Shown here: in pieces, positions 22,551-53,075 of the stretch
Position numbering within the stretch: position 1 is the first letter of the stretch
How the letters are laid out: each line of letters begins with the position of its first letter
NCBI GenBank assembly: GCA_944391445.1
Contig: CALXTL010000005.1
Span: 16,768 to 80,767, forward strand
Reading direction: 5' to 3'
DNA: 64,000 nt
Source: an uncultured Alphaproteobacteria bacterium
Lineage (GTDB): Bacteria; Pseudomonadota; Alphaproteobacteria; RF32; CAG-239
Notes under the pieces: model-generated
The model's input: only the letters and a program-made list of their open reading frames with translations
Database searches by the model: none
What the model was told of the DNA's origin: nothing
Program-made: the position numbers and the translations under genes

Positions 22551-25178
22551 CTAAAATTTATATTTAGCATTCAACATACCGGTATGATCTGTGTAATCTG
22601 AACGATAATGACCTTCATAGCCGGCCGAAACTTCCCAATTATCAGAGACATCAGCGGCCAGTCCTAATCCGGCTTCAATACCGAAACGATCCAAGTCTTC
22701 ACCGTCAACAACATAACCTTGACCATTGGCCAGAGTTACGGCGGCGTTGTTGTCATCGTCCATCAGATCGTAAGTCGCGGCAAGGCGAGCTTCCGGTCTG
22801 ATATTCATACCATTGTCAAGAGCAAAGTCTTTGCTGGCTTTAACGCCGACAACACCGGTCAGAATATCGCTGATATTCGAACCGACTTTAGTTCCAAGAT
22901 TATCGGTGTAACCGTCCTGATCAATCCGAACATAACGCAATCCGGCTTCCGGCGTCAGATTAAAGCCGTTAACCTGCATGTCGTATCCTGTCATGGCCTG
23001 CAGACCGATGGTATCGACATCGTATTTGCCGTCAGCATTAGCCCCGGCAACATTTTTCTTTTCATCATATTCAGACCAGTTGTAAGTGGCAATACCGTTG
23101 ACAAACCAATTCGACGGTTTGTATTCTCCGTACAAAATAGCCGTATGGGTATCAACATCAATATCGCGACGATGACTGTCAATATCCGTCTGATTATAAG
23201 CATAACCGACACCAACTTTGGTCTTGGCATCAATTTGCTTGTCCGCACCAAAAGCAACACCATAAGTATCACTGTCAAACCCGTTGGTCTTAGACGTACT
23301 GTCATGCTTACCATGGTTAAACAGAGTACGGATCCATGTTTTCACACCGGAAAAAGCATCACCGGAAGAAGCGCCTTCGCTGGTTGATGCGACAGAACCT
23401 CCGGAAAGCTGCGAAGTAACAGCGCTGAAGACCTGATTGGCAATATTGGTCTGGGTTGTTCTGACAACCGGAGCCGTATCTGCACCCATGGCATCGACTT
23501 CTTCCAAAGCAGCTCTTTCACCGCCCTGAGTTTGGAACATATCGTTGATAGCCTCGGCTGCTTTGTCAAAATTGGCATTATCAGACTCAGCCCCGCTTGT
23601 TACCGCCAGCAAAGCTGTTGCCTGAGAAGCCGTAGCCCCGGTGGTTGCCGCCAGCTCAGCCCCGTTTTTCTTCTCATATTTTCCGTTTTCTGCGTCATAC
23701 GTAAACAGAGCATTATTATCAGCAAACTTGAGTTTTTCGTCGCGACCTTCGGCGCCTTCCAAGAATTTTGACGTATCAAAGGAATCAATACCGGCGGCAA
23801 ATTTGGCCTCAACTTCAACTTCGCTCGCCAAAGTGACATCACCGATAATATTGGCAGAATTCTCAGCATCAAAAACTTTGGTGACGATTTTGTTGCCTTC
23901 ACCCAAAGTCAGCGCACCTGCTTCTTCGCCATTGTCCTCTTTAACCACTTTCAAGTCATGGTTTAAATTAATTGTCGTCCCGCTGATTTCGGTTTTGTTA
24001 GCGGCAATTGTCGCCGCACCGTCAACATTAAGGACGGAACTTCCCTCATCTGCACCAATAACCAGTTTACCGTCATCCCAGGCGCGCAACAGAGCCGGAC
24101 CTTCATCAGAACCGTTCATATTAATTGTGCTGTCTGTAAAGGTCAGTCCGCCGCTACCTGCCGAAAATTGACCATGTTCGCCGACATTAACTACAGCATC
24201 GCTAACTTTGATGGAATTGTTAGCACCCAACATAGAGCCGGCACGCCATTCATCCTGAGACGGATTGGGCTCAGCCATAATACCATCAAGACTGACTTCA
24301 CCGCCGTTAATTTCCAAACTGCCAACCCAAACGCCGGCGCCATTTTTCAAATCAATACCATTATTCAGGATCAGCTTGCCTTCGGAACCGTCACCGCCAT
24401 TAATTTCGGTAACATCGGCGGAAGAAATACCGACAAATTTACCCGGTTCGTAAGTTCCGTCAAAAGACAGTTTTTTGTTGGCTGTCAAGGTCGTGTCGTC
24501 ACCACTTAGTGCAATACGACCATTGTTTTCCAAATCAGTATCTAAAATCGTATCTTTTGCTAAAACCAAAATACCGTCATTTTTAACCTTACCATTGCCG
24601 GTAATGTTGATTTCGTTTGTTTCAGCATCTCCGCCTTTAACATAGGTTTTACCTTCGCCGAAAGTAACTGTTTTACCGTCAGCAATAGTCAAGACCTTAG
24701 TATCCTCATCATAATCTTCGCCGGTATGCAGCCAAATTCCAGTTCCGTCCTTAAACTCTACATCGCCGACTTTAATATCATTAGCCAAAACAAGCTCGCC
24801 TTCCTCAACAGAAGAACCTGAGCTGTTGTATACCTTACCTTTGTCCATAACCAGTTTGATGCCGGACAAATCTGATCCTTTAGCACCTGCGGTCAGATAC
24901 CCTTGAATCGTTAAGGTCTTATCTCCGGTCAAGGTTGTGGGAGCGGCCATATTTGTGAAAGCATTCATAGTTACATCATCAAGCAATGTAACATTAGCTT
25001 TTTCTCCGGTAAAAAAGACACGGCTGTCAGGTTTGATGTAGTTTGACCCAATCTTCTCATCAACGATAGATTGACTGAGACTATCACCATCCTTAACCAG
25101 ATAATCTGCTGCGTTTGTATTACCTGCAACAAATGCGGCGGCCACCAAAGCTGTTGTAAATAAAAGTTTATTTTTCAT
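22551..25178 (-). CDS. Autotransporter (type Va) outer-membrane protein with a large Gly/Asp/Thr-rich passenger domain
   Basis: Signal peptide MKNKLLFTTALVAAAFVAGNTNA; repetitive passenger; C-terminal beta-barrel translocator ending ...GYEGHYRSDYTDHTGMLNAKYKF with a terminal aromatic residue. AAGGAAA ribosome-binding site. Confidence 0.85.
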   Translation of the reverse strand: MKNKLLFTTALVAAAFVAGNTNAADYLVKDGDSLSQSIVDEKIGSNYIKPDSRVFFTGEKANVTLLDDVTMNAFTNMAAPTTLTGDKTLTIQGYLTAGAKGSDLSGIKLVMDKGKVYNSSGSSVEEGELVLANDIKVGDVEFKDGTGIWLHTGEDYDEDTKVLTIADGKTVTFGEGKTYVKGGDAETNEINITGNGKVKNDGILVLAKDTILDTDLENNGRIALSGDDTTLTANKKLSFDGTYEPGKFVGISSADVTEINGGDGSEGKLILNNGIDLKNGAGVWVGSLEINGGEVSLDGIMAEPNPSQDEWRAGSMLGANNSIKVSDAVVNVGEHGQFSAGSGGLTFTDSTINMNGSDEGPALLRAWDDGKLVIGADEGSSVLNVDGAATIAANKTEISGTTINLNHDLKVVKEDNGEEAGALTLGEGNKIVTKVFDAENSANIIGDVTLASEVEVEAKFAAGIDSFDTSKFLEGAEGRDEKLKFADNNALFTYDAENGKYEKKNGAELAATTGATASQATALLAVTSGAESDNANFDKAAEAINDMFQTQGGERAALEEVDAMGADTAPVVRTTQTNIANQVFSAVTSQLSGGSVASTSEGASSGDAFSGVKTWIRTLFNHGKHDSTSKTNGFDSDTYGVAFGADKQIDAKTKVGVGYAYNQTDIDSHRRDIDVDTHTAILYGEYKPSNWFVNGIATYNWSEYDEKKNVAGANADGKYDVDTIGLQAMTGYDMQVNGFNLTPEAGLRYVRIDQDGYTDNLGTKVGSNISDILTGVVGVKASKDFALDNGMNIRPEARLAATYDLMDDDNNAAVTLANGQGYVVDGEDLDRFGIEAGLGLAADVSDNWEVSAGYEGHYRSDYTDHTGMLNAKYKF

Positions 25179-31671: not shown

Positions 31672-32025
31672 ATGAAAAACATACTTCGCATATTTGCCTT
31701 TGTCCTGTGCCTAACAGCCTGCAATAAACCGCAGGACGAATTTACCTTCGCACCGGACAAAGTCTATTTTTTCTACGCCAATTCTTGTCCGCATTGTCAT
31801 GATGCCTTGGACGAAATCAATAAAAAATACCCAAAACTGTCATTAAGCATGATCAATGTGGCCAACAATCAGGGCTACGAACTATTGCTCAAATGTGCGC
31901 AAAAATTTAATCTCGGCAACCGGATCGGAACACCGCTGTTCTGCATGGGAGATAAATATCTGATGGGCTGGTCGCCGGAAATTGCCAAACAGTTTGACCG
32001 GGATATCAAACCTTTCCTCAAATAA
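31672..32025 (+). CDS. Thioredoxin-fold lipoprotein with a CPHC active site (DsbA/thiol-disulfide oxidoreductase-like)
   Basis: Lipobox LTAC, then FFYANSCPHCHDA (Cys-Pro-His-Cys) in the position typical of thioredoxin-fold redox proteins; 117 aa. Confidence 0.55.
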   Translation: MKNILRIFAFVLCLTACNKPQDEFTFAPDKVYFFYANSCPHCHDALDEINKKYPKLSLSMINVANNQGYELLLKCAQKFNLGNRIGTPLFCMGDKYLMGWSPEIAKQFDRDIKPFLK

Positions 32026-32120: not shown

Positions 32121-32765
32121 ATGGCCAAACAACTTCCCGTCGAAATCATGAAAAAAGCCGTTGTCGGCATCAGTTACATTGCGCATCCGCTGCGATTGCA
32201 AATTCTTGAGTTTCTGGATGTCAATGGTGCTTCGTCGGTTTCTGCCATCACCAAAGGGCTTGGCGCAGAACAAGTCATTGTCTCGCAGAGTCTCAAAAAA
32301 CTACGTGAAGCCAGTTTGGTTGAAACGGAACGCCGCGGCTTATTTATATATTATAAAATTTGTGAAGAATATCCTGCCAGCATTTTTGTTTGCATTCGCA
32401 AACTTTTCGGCTATATGACCAATAATTTTTATTTTCTGGCCGACGGATACAAAGCCCTGCTCCCGCGTGACTACACCACTATGGTCGCCAACCAGATCAA
32501 GCTGTTTGCCAATTATGAAAAAATGCGAATACTGGAATACCTTGTTTTGAATGAAAACAGCAATGTCACGGACATCATCAACGGGATTGGCAGTTCGCAG
32601 TTAAAAGTATCGCAATATCTCAAAAGACTGCGTGATGACGGCTTCGTCACTTGCCGCCGCGATGGTCGTTTTGTATATTATGCCATCACCAACGGCGTCC
32701 ACAAAACAGCAATTGAATGTATTCGCAAAAGATATAATGCTCTGTCTGAAAAAGCAGATTTTTAA
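32121..32765 (+). CDS. Transcriptional regulator with two tandem ArsR-type winged-helix domains
   Basis: Two repeats of the ArsR/SmtB HTH pattern: (1) HPLRLQILEFLDVNGASSVSAITKGLGAEQVIVSQSLKKLREASLVETERRGLFIYYKI and (2) EKMRILEYLVLNENSNVTDIINGIGSSQLKVSQYLKRLRDDGFVTCRRDGRFVYYAI. Confidence 0.6.
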   Translation: MAKQLPVEIMKKAVVGISYIAHPLRLQILEFLDVNGASSVSAITKGLGAEQVIVSQSLKKLREASLVETERRGLFIYYKICEEYPASIFVCIRKLFGYMTNNFYFLADGYKALLPRDYTTMVANQIKLFANYEKMRILEYLVLNENSNVTDIINGIGSSQLKVSQYLKRLRDDGFVTCRRDGRFVYYAITNGVHKTAIECIRKRYNALSEKADF

Positions 32766-33640
32766 CCCTTGCACTGCCCGCAGCGTGAACATCCGTTACA
32801 AATCAGACGGCTGCCGCAGGTTTGGCAGATTGTGCCGAAATATTTGCGATAACTTTCTTCGTTGCCAAATAACCCTGGCTGTGCCGGAGACAAGCAAAAA
32901 TTGATTTTCCGCCCCGAATGTTGCAAACCGGATTTATAGGCCATCCGGCTCTGCAGACGCTTATCTGGCAGATGATATGTTTTGCCGTTCTTAATAAAGT
33001 TTGTGCCCGTCTCAATAAAGCAAAAAGTAATGTCATATGCAACACACTCATCATAAAGAGACTTAACCCAGACATAATCCAGCGGTCGTGATCCGTCATA
33101 GTTTTCCCCGCCGGCAATCACTTGTTCGATCTGCCCTGTGCACAAATATTTACTGAGACAAATCGGGCCGATAAACGGTGCAGCCATCACACCTTTATGC
33201 TTAAACGGCAGCTCCAGGAGCAAAGGCAATCGTTCATCCGCCCGGCGCTGATTCTCACAGGTAACGTTAAAAAAAACATTTTCCCAGCCGGCGTCATTCC
33301 AATCTTTCGGCAGACATTTTTCCACCCGCTCGGGTCTTTTAGTCAGCAGAAAAAAGACCACATCCGGACGCTGCCGAATAATTTTCCAGGCTTCCGAACG
33401 CCACTGGTCAGCCTCTTCCAGAAAGAAATCCGATGTCATGCAAACCCGCAGCTGTTCGCCGCTCCGGACTTTATACTGCCCCTGGCGGTTTTTCTGCAGC
33501 GGATAATCAAACATATTGCGCACCCGGTAGATACGCTCACCATCAGCGCCGCGCATTTTATCCAAAAAAAACATATAACAGTTTTGGCAACCCTCGCTCT
33601 TTTTAACGCACCCGTGCCAAGGATTCCATATATCATGCAT
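32762..33640 (-). CDS. DUF5131 / phage Gp37-Gp68 family protein
   Basis: N-terminal signature MHDIWNPWHGCVKKSEGCQNCYMF matches the (T)WNP..GC...S.GC..CYA hallmark of the phage Gp37/Gp68 family. Cys-rich C-terminus (CQTCGSRLICNGCSRCGQC). Confidence 0.65.
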   Translation of the reverse strand: MHDIWNPWHGCVKKSEGCQNCYMFFLDKMRGADGERIYRVRNMFDYPLQKNRQGQYKVRSGEQLRVCMTSDFFLEEADQWRSEAWKIIRQRPDVVFFLLTKRPERVEKCLPKDWNDAGWENVFFNVTCENQRRADERLPLLLELPFKHKGVMAAPFIGPICLSKYLCTGQIEQVIAGGENYDGSRPLDYVWVKSLYDECVAYDITFCFIETGTNFIKNGKTYHLPDKRLQSRMAYKSGLQHSGRKINFCLSPAQPGLFGNEESYRKYFGTICQTCGSRLICNGCSRCGQCKG

Positions 33641-44198: not shown

Positions 44199-46592
44199 CT
44201 AAGCGCCTTTACGCAATTCCGCGCCAAACTTGTTTTTAAGCGCCTGTTCCACCTTTTGCATCAGAATTTCAATATCCTGATCACTGTAGGTATTTTCAAC
44301 CGGTTGGAATGTAATTGACAAAGCCAAAGACTTTTTCCCGGCCGGCAAATTTTCACCTTCATACGCATCAAAAATACGCACTTCGGCAATATGCGCACGA
44401 TCAGCCGTACGGGCTGTCGCAATCACATCATCTGCACGCACATCCTTATTCAGCACAAAAGCCATATCTTTGTCTACCGGCTGAAAAGCGGAAAGTGTAA
44501 GTTTCTTTTTTGCTTTGTCCCGGTTTGACCGCGGCAACGGCAACTTATCCAAAACAACTTCAAAAGCATAAACACGTTGTTTGATACCCAGCTTCTTCAG
44601 AACCAGCGGATGCAGCTCACCAAAATAAGCCACCACATTTTTGCCCAAACGTAAAGCCCCGCTGCGCCCCGGATGATAATATTCCGGCGCATCCAGACTG
44701 ATCTGGACACTGTCATACGGCCCGTTCGCCGCAGCAATCGCAGCCAGCGCATCAGCTTTGACATCAAAAACATCAAAACCTCGCTGCTCGCTCAGCCAAT
44801 GTTTTTTTGAGGTTTGTCCGGAACGAATACCAGCCGCCGTCATATATTGCTCGCCCGGCTTACGACCATAAAATTCCGGCCCGACCTCAAATAAAGACAC
44901 ATTGCCATACCCACGGGCAATATTACTTTTCAGCCCCAACAACAAATTTGGCAGGACCGACGGCCGCATTTCATCCAAATCGGCGGCAATCGGATTGGAA
45001 AGAACAATACTTTCCTGACCTTTGCGAAACATCTCTGCAATTTTTGAATCGGTAAAACTCCAAGTCACCGTTTCATACATACCGCGATCGGCCAATTCGT
45101 GTTTAACTGTCACAACCCGGCGTTGCGACGGCGTCAGTGTCTGTTTCGGAAACTTCCCGTGCGGCAGGCTTTCAGCCGGCACTTTGTCCAGGCCAATCAT
45201 GCGCACGACTTCTTCAATCAGATCATGTTCCCCTTCAATATCGCCGCGCCAAGTCGGAGAAACAGCCTTGATTCGACCGTTTTCCAAAGAAGTCTCAAAG
45301 CCAAGATGCGTAAGAATTTCTAAAATCTTATCCTGTGACACATCCAGTCCGATCAGACTTTTCACCCGTTCCGGCCGCAAATAAGCCACTCGCGGTGTCA
45401 CATCTTCCGAACCGGCAATCACCACATCCGACGGCTCACCGCCGCATATTTCGCAAATCAACTGCGTGGCATAATCCGATCCCAACACATTTGACTTCGG
45501 ATCAACCCAACGTTCATAGCGATATCGTGAATCGGAATCAATCTGGAAATGACGCCCTGTCCGCGCAATGCAAACCGGATTAAACAAAGCACATTCCAGA
45601 AAAACATTTTTGGTCTCGTCTGAACAACCTTTGGACGCGCCGCCCATAATGCCGCCCAAACACTGAACGCCTTCATCATCGCAAATACCGAGAGATTTAT
45701 CGTCCAAGACATATTCTTTTTCTTCCAGAGACACAAATTTCTCGCCATTTTTGGCCATGCGCACGCAAATATCGCCTTTGAGCTTGTCCGCATCAAAAAC
45801 ATGCAGCGGCCGCGCCATATCATAGTTAATATAATTGGTCACATCAACCAGCGGAGAAATGGGGCGCAAACCAATTGCCGTCAACCGGTCACGCATCCAC
45901 TTCGGCGTTTCCGCCCTGTTATTGACATGACGAATATAGCGGCCGACATAAGTCGGACAGGCCTCAAAATCTTCAACCTTTATATTAATAGGACTCTTGA
46001 ACGCCCCGTTTTTCTTTAAAATTTTCAGCGGTTTGAGTCTGCCGAGCCCGGCAGCCGCCAAATCACGGGCAATACCTCGCACACCCAAACACTCTGCACG
46101 ATTCGGCGTAATTGAAATTTCAATCACCGGATCAGCGGCAATGACATCCGTCACGGCCACACCGATCGGCGTATTTTCCGGCAAAGAGATAATGCCGCTG
46201 TGGTCTTCACCCAGACCAAGCTCCTTTTCCGAACACATCATGCCAAAACTTTCAACGCCGCGAATTTTGCCGATTTCAATTTTCTCACCGAAAGCAGGAA
46301 TCATGACCCCGACATGAGCCAAAACACCGACCATACCGAGCCGGACATTTGGCGCGCCGCAAACAATCTGCAAAACCTCGCGCCCATCATTAACTTTTAA
46401 CACATGCAGATGATCTGAATCCGGATGAGCTTGCACATCTTCAACTTTTGCTGTAACAAAATCGTCTAACCCTTTGGCGGGATTAACAACTTCCTCAACT
46501 TCCAAACCAATGCGTGTCAGCGTCTTCGCAATCTCGTCAACATCGGCCTGCGTCTCCAAATGTTCTTTTAACCAAGATAATGTAAACTTCAT
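44199..46592 (-). CDS. pheT: Phenylalanine--tRNA ligase beta subunit
   Basis: 797 aa with the full PheT architecture (tRNA-binding domain, B3/4, B5, FDX-ACB); overlaps pheS as ATGA. Confidence 0.93.
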
Positions 46593-47698
46593 CGTGCCAA
46601 TCCTCCGTTATTGCTCAATCCGCCGGTCATTGAAGATTCGTCCAACGGCACAAAACCATAATGTTTAAGCCAGCGCACATCCGATTCAAAGAAAGTCCGC
46701 AAATCGGGAATGCCGTATTTCAGCATCGCAAGGCGATCCAGTCCCAGCCCGAAAGCAAACCCCTGATATTCTTCAGGGTCAATACCGCCAGCCTTCAAAA
46801 CATTGGGATGCACCATCCCGCAACCCAAAATCTCAAGCCAGTCGGTGCCGGCACCGATTTTCAATTCGTCTTTAGATTTTTTACAACCGATATCCATTTC
46901 AGCCGAAGGTTCGGTAAATGGAAAAAACGACGGACGATAACGTACCGGAATTTCATCCACTTCAAAAAAAGCTTTGATGAAGTCATACAAACACCCTTTC
47001 AAATGTGCCATGGTGATATTCCGGTCAATCACCAACCCCTCAATCTGGTGAAACATCGGTGTATGCGTCGCGTCATAATCCGAACGATAAGTCCGCCCCG
47101 GCGCAATAATGCGGATCGGCGGCCGCTGTTTTTCCATAGTACGGATCTGCACCGGTGAGGTATGCGTCCGAATGACATAACTGTCGTCAATATCTCTGGA
47201 ACCATTGGCTTCTTTAGGCAGATAAAAAGTATCATGCATCTGCCGGGCAGGATGATTAGCCGGAATATTCAAAGCCGTAAAATTATGAAAATCATCCTCA
47301 ATATCCGGACCTTCAGCCACATCAAAACCCATTTCGCCGAAAATAGCCGTTACCTCTTCATATATTTTTGAAACAGGATGAATCCGCCCCTGAGTTTCCG
47401 GACGCACCGGCAATGTCACGTCAATTTTCTCTTCAGCAAGCCGGGCATTAAGTTCCGCCTTTTCCAAAAGACTTTTCCGCGCTTCCAATGCAGATTCGAT
47501 TTCCATCTTCAAAACATTAAACACGCGCCCCGCTTCTTTGCGCTCTTCCGGAGACAAAGCGCCGAGACTTTTCATCATTTCGGTAATGCAGCCTTTTTTG
47601 CCCAAAGCCAAAACCCTTGTCTCTTCCAGAGATTTCAGATTCTCGGCAGCAGCAATTTCAGTCAAAATCCGTTTTTTTATATCTTCGATGTTTTCCAT
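46589..47698 (-). CDS. pheS: Phenylalanine--tRNA ligase alpha subunit
   Basis: Class II aaRS motifs ([45 protein letters not shown]). Confidence 0.93.
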
Positions 47699-47778
47699 TT
47701 TTCCACCATGATTTAAAATGTCAAAAGAGCCTCACCTGATTTCTCAAGCAGACTCTTCTGACATAATTTTCCTAACGC

Positions 47779-48138
47779 TTATTTGCTTAAAGAAGCCTTT
47801 GCCTGGTCAACCAGTTTTGTGAAAGTTTCGGGCTCTTTAACGGCGATATCAGCCAAGACTTTACGATCAAGCTCAATACCGGCGAGGGTGAGCCCGTTCA
47901 TAAATCGGGAATAGGTCATATCGTGCAAACGGGCAGCGGCGTTAATGCGCTGAATCCACAAAGCGCGGAAGTTTCTTTTCTTAGCCCTTCTGTCGCGATA
48001 AGCATACTGAAGAGCTTTCTCAACTTTTTCAACCGCAACTCTGAAAACATTTTTATTGCGTCCTCTGTAGCCTTTGGCCATCGAGAGAACTTTTTTATGA
48101 CGTGCGTGAGCGGTCATACCTCTTTTCATACGAGACAT
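47779..48138 (-). CDS. rplT: 50S ribosomal protein L20
   Basis: [27 protein letters not shown]...[14 protein letters not shown], canonical L20; 119 aa. Confidence 0.95.
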
Positions 48139-48151
48139 TGTCTAATTCCTC

Positions 48152-48349
48152 TTACAAATATGGTAAAAATTTCTTGATGATTTTCACATCGACATTCGCC
48201 AGCAGAGTAGCGCCGCGAGCCTGTCTTTTCATCTTGGGAGATTTGCAAAAGAGGCAGTGTCTCTTAAAAGCAAAATTTCTTTTGAGTTTGCCGGTTCCGG
48301 TAACGCTGAAGCGTTTTTTGACGGAACTCTTGGTTTTCAACTTTGGCAT
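48152..48349 (-). CDS. rpmI: 50S ribosomal protein L35
   Basis: MPKLKTKSSVKKRFSVTGTGKLKR, canonical L35; 65 aa; AAGGGA ribosome-binding site. Confidence 0.92.
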   Translation of the reverse strand: MPKLKTKSSVKKRFSVTGTGKLKRNFAFKRHCLFCKSPKMKRQARGATLLANVDVKIIKKFLPYL

Positions 48350-48503
48350 TTTAATCCCTTTCTAAAATCATTTTAAGTTTGGATTGATACGATTCGTCAG
48401 GCATGCCGATCAGCACTGAACGAACCTGTTCGTTGCGCGTTATACACTTTAAATCTGCCAAATGCAAGCATTTTTTGTTTAATTTTGTGTTTTACCGCCG
48501 TTT

Positions 48504-49229
48504 TCAATAAAAATTTTCCCGGCTCACACTGAGTGATGCACGCAAATCAACCAGTTTGCCGTCTTCCAATTCAACCTTTCGGTCCATCTGATTGGCCAGA
48601 TCATGATTATGCGTGGCAATCAGAGCCGAAAGCCCGGTTTCTTTGACAATGGAAAGCAATTCGGCAAAAACAGTTTCCGATGTTTTCGGATCAAGATTTC
48701 CGGTTGGTTCGTCGGCCAGCAGCAGTTTTGGCGTATTAGCCAGAGCTCTGGCAATGGCCACGCGCTGCTGCTCCCCGCCGGAAAGTTCGGCCGGACGGTG
48801 CTTAAACCGCTTGCCAAGTCCCAAACGCGACAACAACCACTGAGCTTTTTCCCGGGCAACTTTCGGCCGTACACCGGCAATCAATTGTGGCAGCATAACA
48901 TTTTCTGCCGCATCAAAATCAGGAAGCAAATTATGGTATTGATAAACAAACCCGAGATAATCCCGGCGCAAAACTGTCCGCATGGCATCGCCGAGTTTGC
49001 TGCATTTCTGCCCGTCAAGATAGATCTCGCCTTTGCTCGGCCGCTCAAGCAATCCGGCAATCTGCAGCAACGTAGACTTCCCCGCTCCCGAAGGGCCGAT
49101 CAGGGCGATGACCTCGCCTTTGTCAATATCCAGATTAATTCCTTTCAGAACTTCAAGCGTTTGCGAGCCTTGCTTAAAGGAACGATACACATTTTTTATT
49201 TCCAAAGTCGGAGCTGATTTTTTATTCAT
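48504..49229 (-). CDS. lolD: Lipoprotein-releasing system ATP-binding protein LolD
   Basis: ABC ATPase ([34 protein letters not shown]) paired with the LolC/E permease upstream. Start set at the ATG at 49229, which overlaps the lolE stop by 8 nt. Confidence 0.85.
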
Positions 49230-50469
49230 AACGCAAAGCCTCCACCGGATCAAGTTTTGCGGCGCGATACGCCGGATAAAGCGTCGCCAGAAACGAAAGC
49301 AGCAGTGAAATGCCAACCACCATAATAACCTCAAAATTATCTACTTTTGCCGGCAGTTTGGACAAGAAATAAATCTCTGCCGAAAACAAATCCTGACCGA
49401 GCAAATTTTGCAATCCCTGACGTATAGCCTCAATATGGTGACAGAATAAAAGTCCCAGCATCAATCCGAGCAGTGTGCCGACCGTCCCGATAAAAGCGCC
49501 GTCCATAAAGAAAATCCGCATAATCATTCCTTTGGTGGCTCCCATTGTCCGCAATACCGCAATATCACGGCCTTTGTCCTTAACCAGCATAATCAACCCG
49601 GTGATGATATTAAATGCCGCCACCAAAATAATCAGAGTCAAAATCAAAAACATCACGTTGCGTTCAACGTCAATTGCGTTAAAAAACGCGGCATTAGACT
49701 GTTTCCAGTCATAAACATACGCCCCGGCGCCGACACTTTGCTCAATACTTTTACGCACAGGCGCCAACACGCTTTCGTCATCCAGCGTCACATCAATATT
49801 GGTCACCGCACCTTTCAAACCAAAATATGTCTGTGCCGTTGCAAGCGGCATAAAAATATAGGTGGAATCATATTCATACATCCCCAAATCAAACGTGCCG
49901 ATCACCTGATAAGATTTCATTCGCGGCACGGTGCCGAAAGCAGTGACTTTACCGTTAGGCGAAATCAACGTAATCTTATCGCCGGGCACAACCCCCATTT
50001 TACTGGCCAGTCGAACACCCATGATCACATTGTCGCCTTCAAAATCTTTCATATCCACATTTCTGACACCGTCTTTCAAAATCGGTTTCTTGAGTAAATC
50101 CTCGCGTGACAAACCGCGTACCATGGCTCCCTCGGCAGACTTCCCGGCACTGACCAAAAGCTGATTTTCAATCATCGGAATCACAATGCTGACATGTTCC
50201 GTTTCAGCCAGTTCTTTAACCGCCTGCTGATAATTATTAAAAGGATAGCCCAACGGCGACATCAGACCGATATGCCCGTTAATGCCTAAAATTCTGGATA
50301 AAAGCTCATGGCGAAAACCGTTCATAACCGACATCACGATAATCAAAGTCGCCACGCCGAGCGCAATTCCCGTAAATGCAAAGCCGGTAATCACCGAAAT
50401 AAAGCCTTCTTTGCGCTTGGCACGCAGATAGCGCCGCGCCACCAATCGCTCAAATTTTGAAAACAACAT
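49222..50469 (-). CDS. lolE: Lipoprotein-releasing system permease, LolC/LolE family (FtsX-like)
   Basis: 415 aa; N-terminal transmembrane helix, large periplasmic domain and three C-terminal helices typical of MacB/FtsX-fold LolCE; adjacent to lolD. Confidence 0.85.
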   Translation of the reverse strand: MLFSKFERLVARRYLRAKRKEGFISVITGFAFTGIALGVATLIIVMSVMNGFRHELLSRILGINGHIGLMSPLGYPFNNYQQAVKELAETEHVSIVIPMIENQLLVSAGKSAEGAMVRGLSREDLLKKPILKDGVRNVDMKDFEGDNVIMGVRLASKMGVVPGDKITLISPNGKVTAFGTVPRMKSYQVIGTFDLGMYEYDSTYIFMPLATAQTYFGLKGAVTNIDVTLDDESVLAPVRKSIEQSVGAGAYVYDWKQSNAAFFNAIDVERNVMFLILTLIILVAAFNIITGLIMLVKDKGRDIAVLRTMGATKGMIMRIFFMDGAFIGTVGTLLGLMLGLLFCHHIEAIRQGLQNLLGQDLFSAEIYFLSKLPAKVDNFEVIMVVGISLLLSFLATLYPAYRAAKLDPVEALRYE

Positions 50470-50577
50470 GCTTTTCTCCCGTAATCAATATAAAATTTAT
50501 ATTGTTTTTGCTTTATTTTTACAAGCATATCACGGTCGTCATGTGTATAAAAATTTTTCTGATGATTGGTATATTTG

Positions 50578-50606
50578 TTGACACTGATTAAGCTTTATAA
50601 TAAAAT
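50578..50606 (+). promoter_or_regulatory. Near-consensus sigma-70 promoter (TTGACA-17 nt-TAAAAT) for the first Cys-rich secreted protein gene
   Basis: TTGACA at 50578-50583, 17-nt spacer, TAAAAT at 50601-50606; GAGGAG ribosome-binding site at 50627-50632 and ATG at 50641. Confidence 0.5.
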
Positions 50607-50640
50607 AGAATTAGGTATGATTTTTTGAGGAGTAAGTATT

Positions 50641-51696
50641 ATGAACGGGAAATCGTGGGGCTTGCTGAGCGTTGCGCTGCTTAGCTTTTTTGCCCTGACT
50701 GACACGGCTGCGGCCAAAACTTGGTTTCTGCCGGATTATATGGAAAAACTGCCCAATACGTACCGCGACCGTCTGAATGATGCCGACACACCGACCTTGG
50801 CCGCCACGGAATGCGCCAGGTTTAAAGACAGTGCCGGCAACCCGCTGCGCGCGCAAAGTGAAATTCCCTCTGGTCAGGTTTGCACCCGCTACCCGAACGC
50901 CGTCATCGGCAAGAACTGCGTCGGCAACTGTAAATGCGATACAACCAAATTCATTTATGACTCCTCCAACTGCAATGGCAACTACGTGCTTGCCGGCAGT
51001 TTTTGTTCAGACACCACCAAACGCGCAACGCAATGTCTGTGCAACACCAGGTTATTCCCCTACAGCTACAATGGCACGACCTGTCGTTTCCCCGATGAAT
51101 CTTTAGGAACCTGCCGTGACAAAAAAAGCGGAAGCCACATAGTGCAGCAATATTATGATGGACTGCATTTCAAAAAATGCTATGCCGACACTTGCTGGAA
51201 ATATACAGACTTGGTGGAAAAAGGCTCAGCCACCTGTAAATGGGGTTGCCCGAGCTGGGTTGATCCTGACTGTCCGAAGTGCAAAGCCAGCACCTGTTAT
51301 ACGGATGACTGCCATTTGTATGATGACCCGCCGGTTTCCAGCTGTAAATATGGCTGTGAAGAAACATCCAGCACCATCTGCACTTCAAAATGCGCCAAAT
51401 GCTATGAAGACAACTGTCGCAACCGCAAGGATAACAGCACGGAACTTGGCTGTCAGAAATATTGGGCTGACTGCCCGTCCAAATGCGAAACGGGCAAAAC
51501 CTGCTCGCCGCGCGATTGCCGAGCCGAAGGCTACACACAGACAACATGCCCGGCCAATGCCAACTGCGGCACGCCCTGCACTGACCCCTGTGATGAAAAT
51601 AACACCAAATATTACAAATACGGCACATGTAACACCGGTTACATTGATCTGCTAAACTACTGGTGTAATGGCGCCGTCAAATGCTTCTGGAAATAA
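50641..51696 (+). CDS. Cysteine-rich secreted protein (37 Cys in 351 aa), no recognisable family
   Basis: Signal peptide MNGKSWGLLSVALLSFFALTDTAAA; mature region packed with CxxC, CxC and CxxxC spacings (CVGNCKC, CPKCKASTCYTDDC, CAKCYEDNC, CPSKCETGKTCSPRDC...); strong promoter and ribosome-binding site; terminator downstream. Confidence 0.8.
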   Translation: MNGKSWGLLSVALLSFFALTDTAAAKTWFLPDYMEKLPNTYRDRLNDADTPTLAATECARFKDSAGNPLRAQSEIPSGQVCTRYPNAVIGKNCVGNCKCDTTKFIYDSSNCNGNYVLAGSFCSDTTKRATQCLCNTRLFPYSYNGTTCRFPDESLGTCRDKKSGSHIVQQYYDGLHFKKCYADTCWKYTDLVEKGSATCKWGCPSWVDPDCPKCKASTCYTDDCHLYDDPPVSSCKYGCEETSSTICTSKCAKCYEDNCRNRKDNSTELGCQKYWADCPSKCETGKTCSPRDCRAEGYTQTTCPANANCGTPCTDPCDENNTKYYKYGTCNTGYIDLLNYWCNGAVKCFWK

Positions 51697-51710
51697 GAAG
51701 CCAAACCTTC

Positions 51711-51745
51711 AAAAAGGCCTCTCCACATGGAGAGGTCTTTTCTTT
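51711..51745 (+). terminator. Rho-independent terminator after the first Cys-rich gene
   Basis: Hairpin ggcctctcc-acat-ggagaggtc followed by TTTTCTTT. Confidence 0.7.
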
Positions 51746-51757
51746 GCCCCGGTTTTC

Positions 51758-51882
51758 TCCGGACATCCCTTAAGGCGCGCCGCCGCCACCGGCACGGTCA
51801 TGTTCGGACTTGATCCGGACATCCCTTAAGGTACACGCTGCCGCCACCGGCACGGTCATGTTCGGACTTGATCCGGACATCC
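51758..51882. repeat. Intergenic tandem direct repeat, ~57-bp unit in 2.2 copies
   Basis: Unit 1 (51758-51813, tccggacatcccttaaggcgcgccgccgccaccggcacggtcatgttcggacttga) and unit 2 (51814-51871) differ only in a central 14- versus 16-nt segment; a partial third copy (tccggacatcc) lies at 51872-51882. Confidence 0.85.
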
Positions 51883-52002
51883 AGGTTAAATGATATAGCC
51901 TTATTAATCCCCCGGATCCCCGGGGCTGTTCCTCGCTAAAGCTCAAACCCGAGAATGACAAAGGAAAAAGGACTTTTTGTCAAACCGAGGTATGATTATA
52001 TG

Positions 52003-52031
52003 TTGACATCATTGGCGAAATAAGCGATACT
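52003..52031 (+). promoter_or_regulatory. Putative sigma-70 promoter (TTGACA-17 nt-GATACT) for the second Cys-rich secreted protein gene
   Basis: TTGACA at 52003-52008, 17-nt spacer, GATACT at 52026-52031; AAGGA ribosome-binding site and ATG at 52081. Confidence 0.4.
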
Positions 52032-52080
52032 GAATACAGAGCCTTGTGTCGTCATATTTCTTTTTTAAGGATGTCATGCG

Positions 52081-52932
52081 ATGAACTACAATTATTTCTT
52101 ACCCTGTTTCGTCTCCGCCGCGGCTATTCTGGCCGCCGGCGGGGCACTCGCCCAGCAATGTGTTCAGGCGCCGTCCTGCGCCGAGCTCGGTTATACTGAC
52201 TCTGTTGCCGACTGCACCGATAACGGCGTGCTTTATTGCCCGTTTGACAAGTCAAAAGTCTTTTGCCGACAAGAAGATGGCTCCTGTGAAAGAACTTGCG
52301 ACGAATTACTGGCGGAAAATAATTGTCTCCGCTATAATGACGGAGACACCATCCGAGGAACTTTTCATCAGGATATTTGCTTATTCGGAACGGTCACAGG
52401 ATCCTCGGTAACTCTCAATCGGGCAACGGTTTGGGATGCCGGTAAGCGCTGGCCTGTTTGTGAGAGTGAAATGAACGGTCGGGCAAGGCTTGATTTAACC
52501 ACTTTGTCTATCAGAGGAACAGCAATTTTTCATACGGATGTGGATATCGATCGTATTTCCTACACTCGATCGCAACACTGGTCTGCCGAATTTCACGGCA
52601 ACACCAGAATGCAGGTGCTTATTGAATCTGATTTTTCATATACGCCTGCATTAGAGCTGGATTTTTATGGAGAACTTGACGAGACAGGCACATCGTATAA
52701 AAAAACAACCAATGAAATTTCCCTTATATGCTCTCCAGAGTGCAACGCCAATTTATCTGGACGATGCGAGGTAGACATTTACCAGCAAGGCGCCGATGTC
52801 ACTTACTGCAGTAAATATGCCGGCGGTGGCAGTTGCGACAAAGAAGTCATCTTCAACTGCGACAATGACGGCGGTGGAAATAACGCCGGCGTTTGCACGG
52901 AGAAAACCGGCACTTGCCCAACCAGTTGGTAA
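52081..52932 (+). CDS. Cysteine-rich secreted protein (about 19 Cys in 283 aa), no recognisable family
   Basis: Signal peptide (MNYNYFLPCFVSAAAILAAGGALA); Cys-rich N-terminal module (QQCVQAPSCAELGYTDSVADCTDNGVLYCPFDKSKVFCRQEDGSCERTCDELLAENNC) and a Cys/Gly-rich C-terminus. Confidence 0.75.
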   Translation: MNYNYFLPCFVSAAAILAAGGALAQQCVQAPSCAELGYTDSVADCTDNGVLYCPFDKSKVFCRQEDGSCERTCDELLAENNCLRYNDGDTIRGTFHQDICLFGTVTGSSVTLNRATVWDAGKRWPVCESEMNGRARLDLTTLSIRGTAIFHTDVDIDRISYTRSQHWSAEFHGNTRMQVLIESDFSYTPALELDFYGELDETGTSYKKTTNEISLICSPECNANLSGRCEVDIYQQGADVTYCSKYAGGGSCDKEVIFNCDNDGGGNNAGVCTEKTGTCPTSW

Positions 52933-53075
52933 ATATTTTACACCATTCAGAGAAACACACCCGGCCGGAAAACCGGTCGGGTGTGTTTTTTGCCCTCATC
53001 AAATTTTAAGCGTCAGCGGGAAACATCCCCGAAAACCAAGGCATGAGTACAACCGTCAAAAACTGTCGCGCATTT

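Follow-up and report, generated by a model that had tools for sequence, protein, structure and literature searches.

Genes A and B are two adjacent open reading frames (ORFs), at 50641–51696 and 52081–52932, in a 64 000-nucleotide stretch of DNA from an uncultured alphaproteobacterium (assembly GCA_944391445.1, contig CALXTL010000005.1, positions 16 768–80 767; this whole stretch is called the window below). We conclude from sequence and gene order that they represent a conserved two-gene unit, in which an 'A-type' gene is genetically coupled to an 'LGY-type' gene, marked by an N-terminal LGY module, and that the two are not detectably paralogous. We conclude further that the second gene acquired a promoter cassette of its own in the window's species, where this cassette then multiplied. 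The features of A and B described below are on the forward strand unless stated otherwise; the two terminators carry no strand assignment.

Both products are exceptionally rich in cysteine. A contains 37 Cys in 351 residues (10.5%) and B contains 19 in 283 (6.7%, one of the 19 sitting inside the signal peptide), while the median over the window's 54 ORFs of at least 200 aa is 1.05%, and the two rank first and second among them. Twenty-three cysteines are invariant and three nearly so in the A family (10 homologues), and 13 are invariant in the B family, so the enrichment is selected and not a matter of chance. CxxC and CxC motifs are plentiful in both proteins, and histidine is scarce in A (three residues). 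A predicted Sec signal peptide occupies residues 1–25 of A (50641–50715; hydrophobicity profile and AxA rule), with cleavage between AAA and KTWFLPDY, and a predicted signal peptide occupies residues 1–24 of B (52081–52152), with cleavage between ALA and QQC. Both were assigned heuristically, from a hydrophobic core followed by AxA (...TAAA/KTW in A, ...ALA/QQC in B); the n-region of the B signal peptide (MNYNYFLPCFVSAAAILAAGGALA) has no basic residue. Since the cysteines, promoters and ribosome-binding sites (RBSs) are conserved in homologous loci, we regard A and B as genuine, constrained genes, whose products are predicted from sequence to be Sec-type exported proteins.

Neither protein has a match in Pfam (E <= 1), NCBIfam or the PDB sequence set; in PHROGs, B has none and A a single sub-threshold match (E 0.0087). 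Curated models of Cys-rich domains (metallothionein, defensin, EGF, TNFR and others) are unmatched by either protein in Pfam, NCBIfam and PDB sequences, and no toxin domain was found by Pfam or NCBIfam in A, B or the paralogues examined. A first-pass annotation of this DNA had described A and B as adjacent genes of very high Cys content, with cleavable signal peptides and belonging to no recognised family, and each of these statements stands. A and B are evidently members of two undescribed protein families.

The order of an A-type gene followed by an LGY-type gene recurs in five other lineages. Seven loci came out of a scan of metagenomes with the A profile. Four of them (L023, L024, L025 and L026) contain a complete short A-type gene, and in each of the four it is followed on the same strand, after a gap of 12–116 bp, by a gene for a protein with a signal peptide, an LGY module and a tail-collar domain. 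The A-type proteins of these four loci span three lineages at 32–63% mutual identity (88% for L025 versus L026), and the LGY module of B matches their partner proteins with E-values of 1e-7 to 1e-9. At three further loci (L030, L031 and L032), a divergent Cys-rich A-type gene is followed 22–30 bp on by a B orthologue (P0016, P0017); aligned with the N-terminus of the gene 5' of the B orthologue in L030, the A profile gave an hhalign probability of 95% (E 4e-8). Finally, P0005, the A orthologue at locus L002, carries LGY modules as a C-terminal fusion; a count of LGY modules in A-family proteins by a loose regular expression is unreliable and was used for P0005 only. A DsbD-like gene (DsbD_N, DsbD_TM and thioredoxin domains; L024:1929–3515, reverse strand) lies directly 3' of the pair in L024. 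Paralogy of A and B, which the first-pass annotation had proposed to check, was rejected: BLASTP between them was not significant, a profile–profile comparison of the A-family PANA module (see below) with the LGY module gave a probability of 11%, and shuffle tests of the modules were not significant.

Among A homologues, a word-indexed search found only 11 clusters, and a profile search against 1.84 billion representatives raised the number to 183 (clustered at 50% identity), 125 of them with E <= 1e-10. Family members have a median length of 444 aa and a median Cys content of 9.4%. The conserved N-terminal domain of A (50716–51195, approximately residues 26–185) corresponds to a part of the A profile that many long members match by itself (positions 10–177). 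Behind the signal peptide, A shares the mature N-terminus AK[TV][WY][FW]LP[DE][YF] (residues 25–33) that is conserved in the family, a motif found near residue 24 in 46 of the 183 cluster representatives, together with the family's Cys pattern. Next comes a Cys-rich repeat region (51226–51504, approximately residues 196–288) with one clean C-x-SKC...DNCxNRxDN...GCQKYWxDCxSKC unit, the GC.K.W.DC..KC repeat of the family, and a possible degenerate second. The GCQKYWxDCxSKC...DNCxNRxDN unit occurs in one to four copies in the A family (three to four in P0010, P0011 and the L025 protein). An internal duplication is visible in A by eye and clear in P0010 and P0011; within A alone the repeat is not significant (self-alignment score 45 versus a shuffle mean of 34, with 146 of 2000 shuffles as good). 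The protein ends in a single C-terminal PANA module (51514–51651, approximately residues 292–337; C..GY.....CPANA.C..C..C.....YKYG.C..GY), which is present in 30 of 159 A-family members, in tandem copies in P0053 and P0070.

Long A-family members end in DUF285/BspA-type leucine-rich repeat (LRR), PKD or Lcl_C domains, and one of them is annotated by NCBI as a BspA-family surface protein. By its domain content A is a short, head-less member, corresponding only to the Cys-rich N-terminal part of longer adhesin-type proteins without their adhesin domains. Fold searches with the AlphaFold2 model of A, which is a poor one, gave no match, including in PDB.

Protein B consists of a signal peptide, an LGY module, a predicted right-handed beta-helix and a Cys-rich C-terminal cap. 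The five-Cys LGY module (52159–52266, residues 27–62; C.QAPSCAELGY.....C......YCPFDK.K.FC) stands directly behind the signal peptide and has the family pattern C-x5-C-x2-LGY-x6-C-x7-CPFD-x5-C. The module is common to proteins P0018–P0043, and the first ~65 residues of B recur at 64–84% identity in P0018–P0029, the remainder of those proteins being unrelated. Across the family, then, the LGY module stays at the extreme N-terminus and everything downstream varies: the paralogues carry tandem four-Cys LGY modules, phage tail-collar domains (PF07484) or other Cys-rich tails. B itself has no Pfam match and hence no Collar domain, which occurs only in its paralogues P0027–P0029 and in the partner proteins of A-type genes. 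The number of internal LGY modules also differs among strain variants of one paralogue (P0018, P0021–P0026), through indels of one to three whole modules (~40–110 aa).

In an AlphaFold2 model of B (seven orthologues aligned; pLDDT 76, pTM 0.71), residues 70–283 are confidently beta-rich, and the best fold matches of this predicted parallel beta-helix are adhesins, tailspikes and pectate lyases. The predicted helix and its disulfide-rich C-terminal cap together span 52288–52929 (approximately residues 70–283). The C-terminal beta-barrel translocator (PF03797) is absent from B by Pfam. According to this model, B is a beta-helix member of the LGY multigene family.

The 5' end of B is shared with other genes at the DNA level. 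The shared cassette is ~0.5 kb long and comprises a 58-bp unit, the palindrome ATATAGCCTTATTAATCCCCYGGATCCCCGGGG, 28-bp units, a double promoter, the 5' untranslated region (5'UTR) with the RBS, the signal peptide and the LGY module. Upstream repeat elements make up ~300 bp of it, and DNA similarity ends near codon 63, right after Cys62. Over five paralogue loci, identity is 94–98% in the promoter and 5'UTR, 97–100% in the signal peptide and 73–88% in the LGY module, and falls to 43–51%, the random level, in the 141 nt beyond; B shares this species-specific 5' end at 94–100% identity. The signal-peptide DNA is thus more conserved than the LGY module behind it.

The cassette was found at no fewer than four other dispersed loci in the window's species. 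Each of the genes concerned stands alone among housekeeping genes: P0018 adjoins ppiC-secA, P0019 lies between mrp and adhE, P0027 adjoins valS, and P0033 lies between mraY and fliE. In the window, the 58-bp unit is tandemly repeated at 51758–51882 (2.2 copies, 94% matches by Tandem Repeats Finder; start-to-start spacings 56 and 58) in the distal part of the cassette, and it is found nowhere else in the 64 kb. One or two copies precede P0018, P0019 and P0033, and the unit was seen at each paralogue locus with a contig that reaches far enough upstream. A palindromic element (ATATAGCCTTATTAATCCCCCGGATCCCCGGGG, 51893–51925) is likewise common to paralogue loci L006, L007, L015, L016, L019 and L020. 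The first-pass annotation had noticed the repeat, giving it a period of 57 bp instead of 58, and had taken it for a spacer between the genes, which it is not. It is the distal end of a family-wide cassette, and the 'strong promoter' of B is therefore itself part of a family-wide repeat. The 58-bp unit occurs also 3' of P0027 (L018:1261–1431, two copies, inverted) and 3' of P0033 (L019:4466–4549), so that some family genes are bracketed by the element on both sides.

The number of 58-bp copies varies between loci and is the same across samples at a given locus (window, L003, L004, L017), and in the 12 contigs examined every copy of the cassette bears a promoter of its own, always oriented ON. 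Both an invertible promoter and phase variation by homopolymer or repeat number were rejected as unsupported, there being one orientation throughout and a constant copy number per locus. Twelve-nucleotide inverted repeats (GACATCCCTTAA, TTTAAGGATGTC) bracket the promoter segment (51762–51773 and 51818–51829 versus 52064–52075), and the right arm overlaps the RBS of B; they could mark an inversion site or pair so as to mask the RBS. The repeats are weak: several paralogues lack the left arm or have only a degenerate form of it, and the 12 contigs include no inverted variant. No recombinase gene lies next to the cassette genes at the loci examined. Rfam gave only sub-threshold chance matches, none of them within the tandem repeat, while the fold of the 346-nt upstream region as RNA has z = -3.0. 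Searched for as exact DNA, the cassette had no match in the metagenome collection of JGI. Short-read contigs of the window's species end inside the cassette, which explains the assembly breaks at these genes.

Expression signals are present at both genes, as the first-pass annotation had it. The promoter of A (50578–50606, TTGACA-17-TAAAAT) has 11 of 12 consensus matches, and the RBS GAGGAG (50627–50632) lies 8 nt ahead of the ATG. At the orthologous locus L002, the -35 box, the -10 position (TACAAT) and the RBS are all kept in an intergenic region that is 82% identical. B has two overlapping promoter-like sites (51977–52031; TTGTCA-16-TATGTT and TTGACA-17-GATACT), the second of which (52003–52031) has 10 of 12 consensus matches. 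A related site, TTGAC-17-GATAAT, precedes the LGY genes of a different species, in our reading a human-gut organism, at loci L013 and L014 of a metagenome-assembled genome (MAG), and supports the B site as a real promoter. The RBS of B (AAGGA, 52067–52071, 9 nt ahead of the ATG) is kept in all paralogues. The terminator reported between the genes was found as a terminator-like hairpin 3' of A (51712–51741; arms AAAAGGCCTCTCCA and TGGAGAGGTCTTTT, 14 nt each and 93% complementary, with T-runs on both sides). Transcription of B would end at a strong GC-rich hairpin followed by a T-run (52955–52986), which is common to the convergent ackA and was caught in part by a terminator scan.

The pair is flanked by a lolE-like gene (MacB_PCD and FtsX domains) and ackA, as originally described. 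It is no accidental interruption of a housekeeping stretch, given that the A-type/LGY-type unit is conserved in distant lineages. A and its promoter are divergent from lolE in three species, and the lolE–A intergenic region (window 50470–50640 versus L002:2170–2340) shows 82% identity, against just 60% for the A proteins, which suggests dense regulatory constraint. In relatives the order is lolD and lolE, then divergently A, followed by rpmI-rplT-pheS-pheT (L002, L022). In the window, pheT...rpmI lie on the far side of lolD (44199–50469, compared with L002 and L022), implying an inversion of lolD-lolE-A with one breakpoint in the cassette between A and B.

Other junctions also fall at the cassette. 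Contig L017 (L017:1–2985, ERZ24773414, 1.9x coverage) is 100% identical to window 50755–52145, from gene A to approximately codon 22 of B, beyond which it has P0019 and adhE in place of B and ackA. P0018 is preceded in L006 (9300–10000) by alaS and an autotransporter fragment, and in L007 (8700–10000) by Band7-Band7-ParA/Mrp; the Band7-ParA block precedes P0019 in L015 (2700–4000) and in several other samples. The flanks of P0018 and P0019 are thus exchanged exactly at the cassette. The junctions of L017 and of L006 versus L007 are either cassette recombinants or assembly chimeras over a 143-bp exact repeat.

Proteins identical or nearly identical to A and B come only from metagenomes and MAGs, and B is present in GCA_949288205.1. 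Relatives bear the labels 'Alphaproteobacteria bacterium', 'uncultured Azospirillaceae bacterium' or 'Proteobacteria bacterium'; roe-deer rectum is the stated source of one MAG, and we take L3_072_000M1 to be a human-gut MAG, judged by its name alone. On such labels and names, the suggestion that this is a host-associated alphaproteobacterium is reasonable. Scanning a genome-contig collection gave six related loci in three MAGs, the window's species not among them. No phage or tailocin genes lie near A and B or at the paralogue loci, and we found no published work on surface proteins of uncultured gut Alphaproteobacteria. A phage or prophage origin was rejected, as there were no relatives in IMG/VR or INPHARED.

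Elsewhere in the window, the next most Cys-rich genuine ORF (32762–33640, reverse strand; 292 aa, 5.8% Cys) has a match to DUF5131 and a weak one to phage GP88; it is not related to either A or B. A small ORF at 31672–32025 (forward strand) has a lipobox-like LTAC and a CPHC motif, which is a DsbA-type active-site sequence, and no Pfam match; its product may be an oxidative-folding factor. An 875-aa autotransporter (22551–25178, reverse strand) has a PF03797 barrel and, unlike A and B, not a single cysteine.

What might such a pair do? The explanation we tentatively prefer, on which we are almost evenly divided, is that the A-type and LGY families jointly form a system for display in the envelope or at the surface, in which interchangeable binding heads bearing the LGY tag sit on a Cys-rich base. 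The many cysteines would form disulfides upon arrival in the periplasm. The A-type protein would then serve as a rigid, disulfide-stabilised base or stalk, and the LGY module as an address or docking tag, common to the interchangeable heads and guiding them to one place. The shared promoter would co-regulate the heads, and the cassette would be a substrate of homologous recombination, both for swapping heads and for chromosomal rearrangement. Of the roles raised by the first-pass annotation, an adhesin or host-interaction function is the most plausible, given the predicted beta-helix of B and the tail-collar, BspA-LRR, PKD and Lcl_C domains of relatives; a surface-layer role has no supporting feature.

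Several observations weigh against a display system. The Sec signal peptide indicates export to the periplasm only, and neither a route of translocation across the outer membrane nor an anchor or lipobox was found for A or B. The number of cysteines in A is odd, and its model is poor overall (pTM 0.37), though pLDDT is 84–92 for residues 60–160. Coupling also has exceptions: in L022, A is followed by rpmI instead of an LGY-type gene, the gene upstream of the B-like P0020 is unrelated, and most LGY paralogues stand alone. Part of the recombination evidence (L017; L006 versus L007) could reflect chimeras of metagenome assembly, and the A-to-B junction in the window's species is bridged solely by the window assembly.

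The separate promoters and the terminator between A and B in the window, the many LGY paralogues standing alone among housekeeping genes, and the lack of detectable homology between the A modules and the LGY module would all suit independent, soluble secreted binding proteins or lectins that do not interact, their adjacency reflecting co-regulation or a shared operon ancestry and the LGY module being only a stabilising disulfide knot. We consider this unlikely, because the A-type/LGY-type order is kept in L023–L026 and L030–L032 despite protein divergence to 25–40% identity, because P0005 fuses the two, and because LGY is fixed at the extreme N-terminus while the downstream part changes. The cassette might instead drive antigenic or phase variation of surface proteins, by recombination, gene conversion or promoter inversion, in the manner of Mycoplasma vpma/vsp/mpl or Neisseria opa, a process that could also overlay the display system. 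A conserved 5'UTR and signal peptide before an unrelated remainder is what is seen in vpma/vsp (PMC2268961), and differing flanks are joined at the cassette across samples (A with P0019 in L017; Band7-ParA with P0018 in L007 and with P0019 in L015). The 12-nt repeats GACATCCCTTAA and TTTAAGGATGTC around the promoter segment and the different numbers of 58-bp units between loci point the same way. However, every copy has its own ON-oriented promoter (12 of 12 contigs), the left repeat arm is absent or degenerate in several paralogues, copy number per locus is identical across samples (window, L003, L004, L017), the genes have no recombinase gene beside them and do not encode lipoproteins, and chimeric assembly may account for the junction variants (L017 at 1.9x). 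Variation of this kind therefore seems to us distinctly unlikely.

Polymorphic toxins typically have conserved N-terminal and variable C-terminal parts. The layout of the LGY family is of this kind, its paralogues and the partners of A-type genes carry tail-collar domains and match many PHROG tail-fibre families, and the B beta-helix resembles tailspikes and depolymerases, all of which would fit tail-fibre-like or bacteriocin-like proteins of interbacterial antagonism or recognition, with a conserved N-terminal delivery part and a variable C-terminal part for receptor binding or killing. We hold this to be quite improbable: no immunity-like small gene lies 3' of B or its paralogues, whose neighbours are housekeeping genes, no phage or tailocin genes are nearby, viral contigs and phage genomes contain no relatives, and no toxin domain was found. 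It is very improbable, in our view, that A and B never reach the surface and are envelope proteins of the periplasm or inner leaflet, with structural, chaperone-like or metal-buffering roles and cysteines as metal ligands or redox buffers. A Sec signal is the only export signal evident, CxxC and CxC motifs abound, A lies beside lolCDE-type genes in three species, and a DsbD-like gene neighbours the pair in L024; on the other side, A has only three His, family members occur fused to typical extracellular adhesin domains (BspA-LRR, PKD, Lcl_C, tail collar), and a beta-helix such as that of B is a typical fold among secreted and surface proteins.

While the families themselves are undescribed, they are of a familiar general kind, that of surface or secreted binding proteins of modular build whose N-module is invariant and whose genes form a multigene family with conserved 5' ends. 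In architecture, the nearest described counterpart is the mosaic adhesive trimer (MAT) fibre family of Bdellovibrio bacteriovorus, whose members have a signal peptide, an invariant N-domain proposed to bind the cell surface, and variable, swappable C-terminal tips that include beta-helical and phage-tail-fibre-like parts (PMC10769870). The likeness is one of architecture only, namely an exported multigene family with a signal peptide, then an invariant N-module, then variable C-terminal tips in one genome. The MAT N-domain is ~130 aa and beta-rich, and the proteins are long trimeric fibres (~1000 aa), whereas here the module is a 36-aa, five-Cys knot on proteins of 125–420 aa; here, too, the promoter and 5'UTR are shared (94–98% DNA identity), and there is a separate conserved A-type partner gene. 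In Mycoplasma Vpma/Vsp, the 5'UTR and signal-peptide coding region are highly conserved in the family and divergence begins past the N-terminus (PMC2268961). The LGY family has the same conserved 5'UTR and signal peptide. The Mycoplasma genes, however, encode lipoproteins, lie in a cluster and depend on one promoter, which a Xer1-type recombinase moves; the members of the LGY family are dispersed non-lipoprotein genes with promoters of their own, and neither recombinase nor inversion was seen.

The predicted fold of B resembles those of right-handed beta-helix proteins, such as the Parabacteroides 'putative adhesin/pectinase' structures 3lyc, 3ljy and 3jx8, Caldicellulosiruptor tapirins, autotransporter passengers, phage tailspikes and pectate lyases. 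Sequence identity is only 5–16%, however, and B has an LGY knot, a Cys-rich cap and no autotransporter barrel. P0027–P0029 and the LGY partners in L023–L026 recall phage tail-collar proteins (PF07484) in carrying that domain behind LGY, but B lacks it, and the LGY-collar genes are chromosomal, with Sec signals and neither phage context nor viral relatives. Long A-family members resemble BspA-family LRR proteins in ending in DUF285/BspA repeats, and A itself is without LRRs. As a functional analogy, many secreted proteins that share a small module, with a separate scaffold gene linked to them, recall the cohesin–dockerin system of cellulosomes. Dockerins of cellulosomes bind Ca and are usually C-terminal; there is no relation in sequence or fold, and binding between A and LGY is purely hypothetical. 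In the boldest version of the display system, which we regard as improbable, the LGY knot would be a dockerin-like tag and the A-type protein its cognate disulfide-rich scaffold, together forming a new surface-display system of gut Alphaproteobacteria with interchangeable heads (beta-helix, tail-collar lectin, LGY repeats) on a common base. Recombination at the 0.5-kb promoter-bearing cassette would supply it with new heads and reshuffle the chromosome in the process.

Gut metagenomes of humans and animals contain uncultured Alphaproteobacteria, and A and B represent two undescribed, lineage-restricted families of predicted exported, disulfide-rich proteins from such bacteria. Being genetically coupled and fused to adhesin or lectin domains, these are obvious candidates for attachment to host or microbial surfaces. 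A may have a new Cys-knot fold, if the absence of structural matches is confirmed. On the practical side, the cassette accounts for short-read assembly breaks in this species. Its copies also offer an unusually clean case of modular evolution, in which a unit for expression, export and a presumed address is near-identical from gene to gene, promoter included, and the payload differs.

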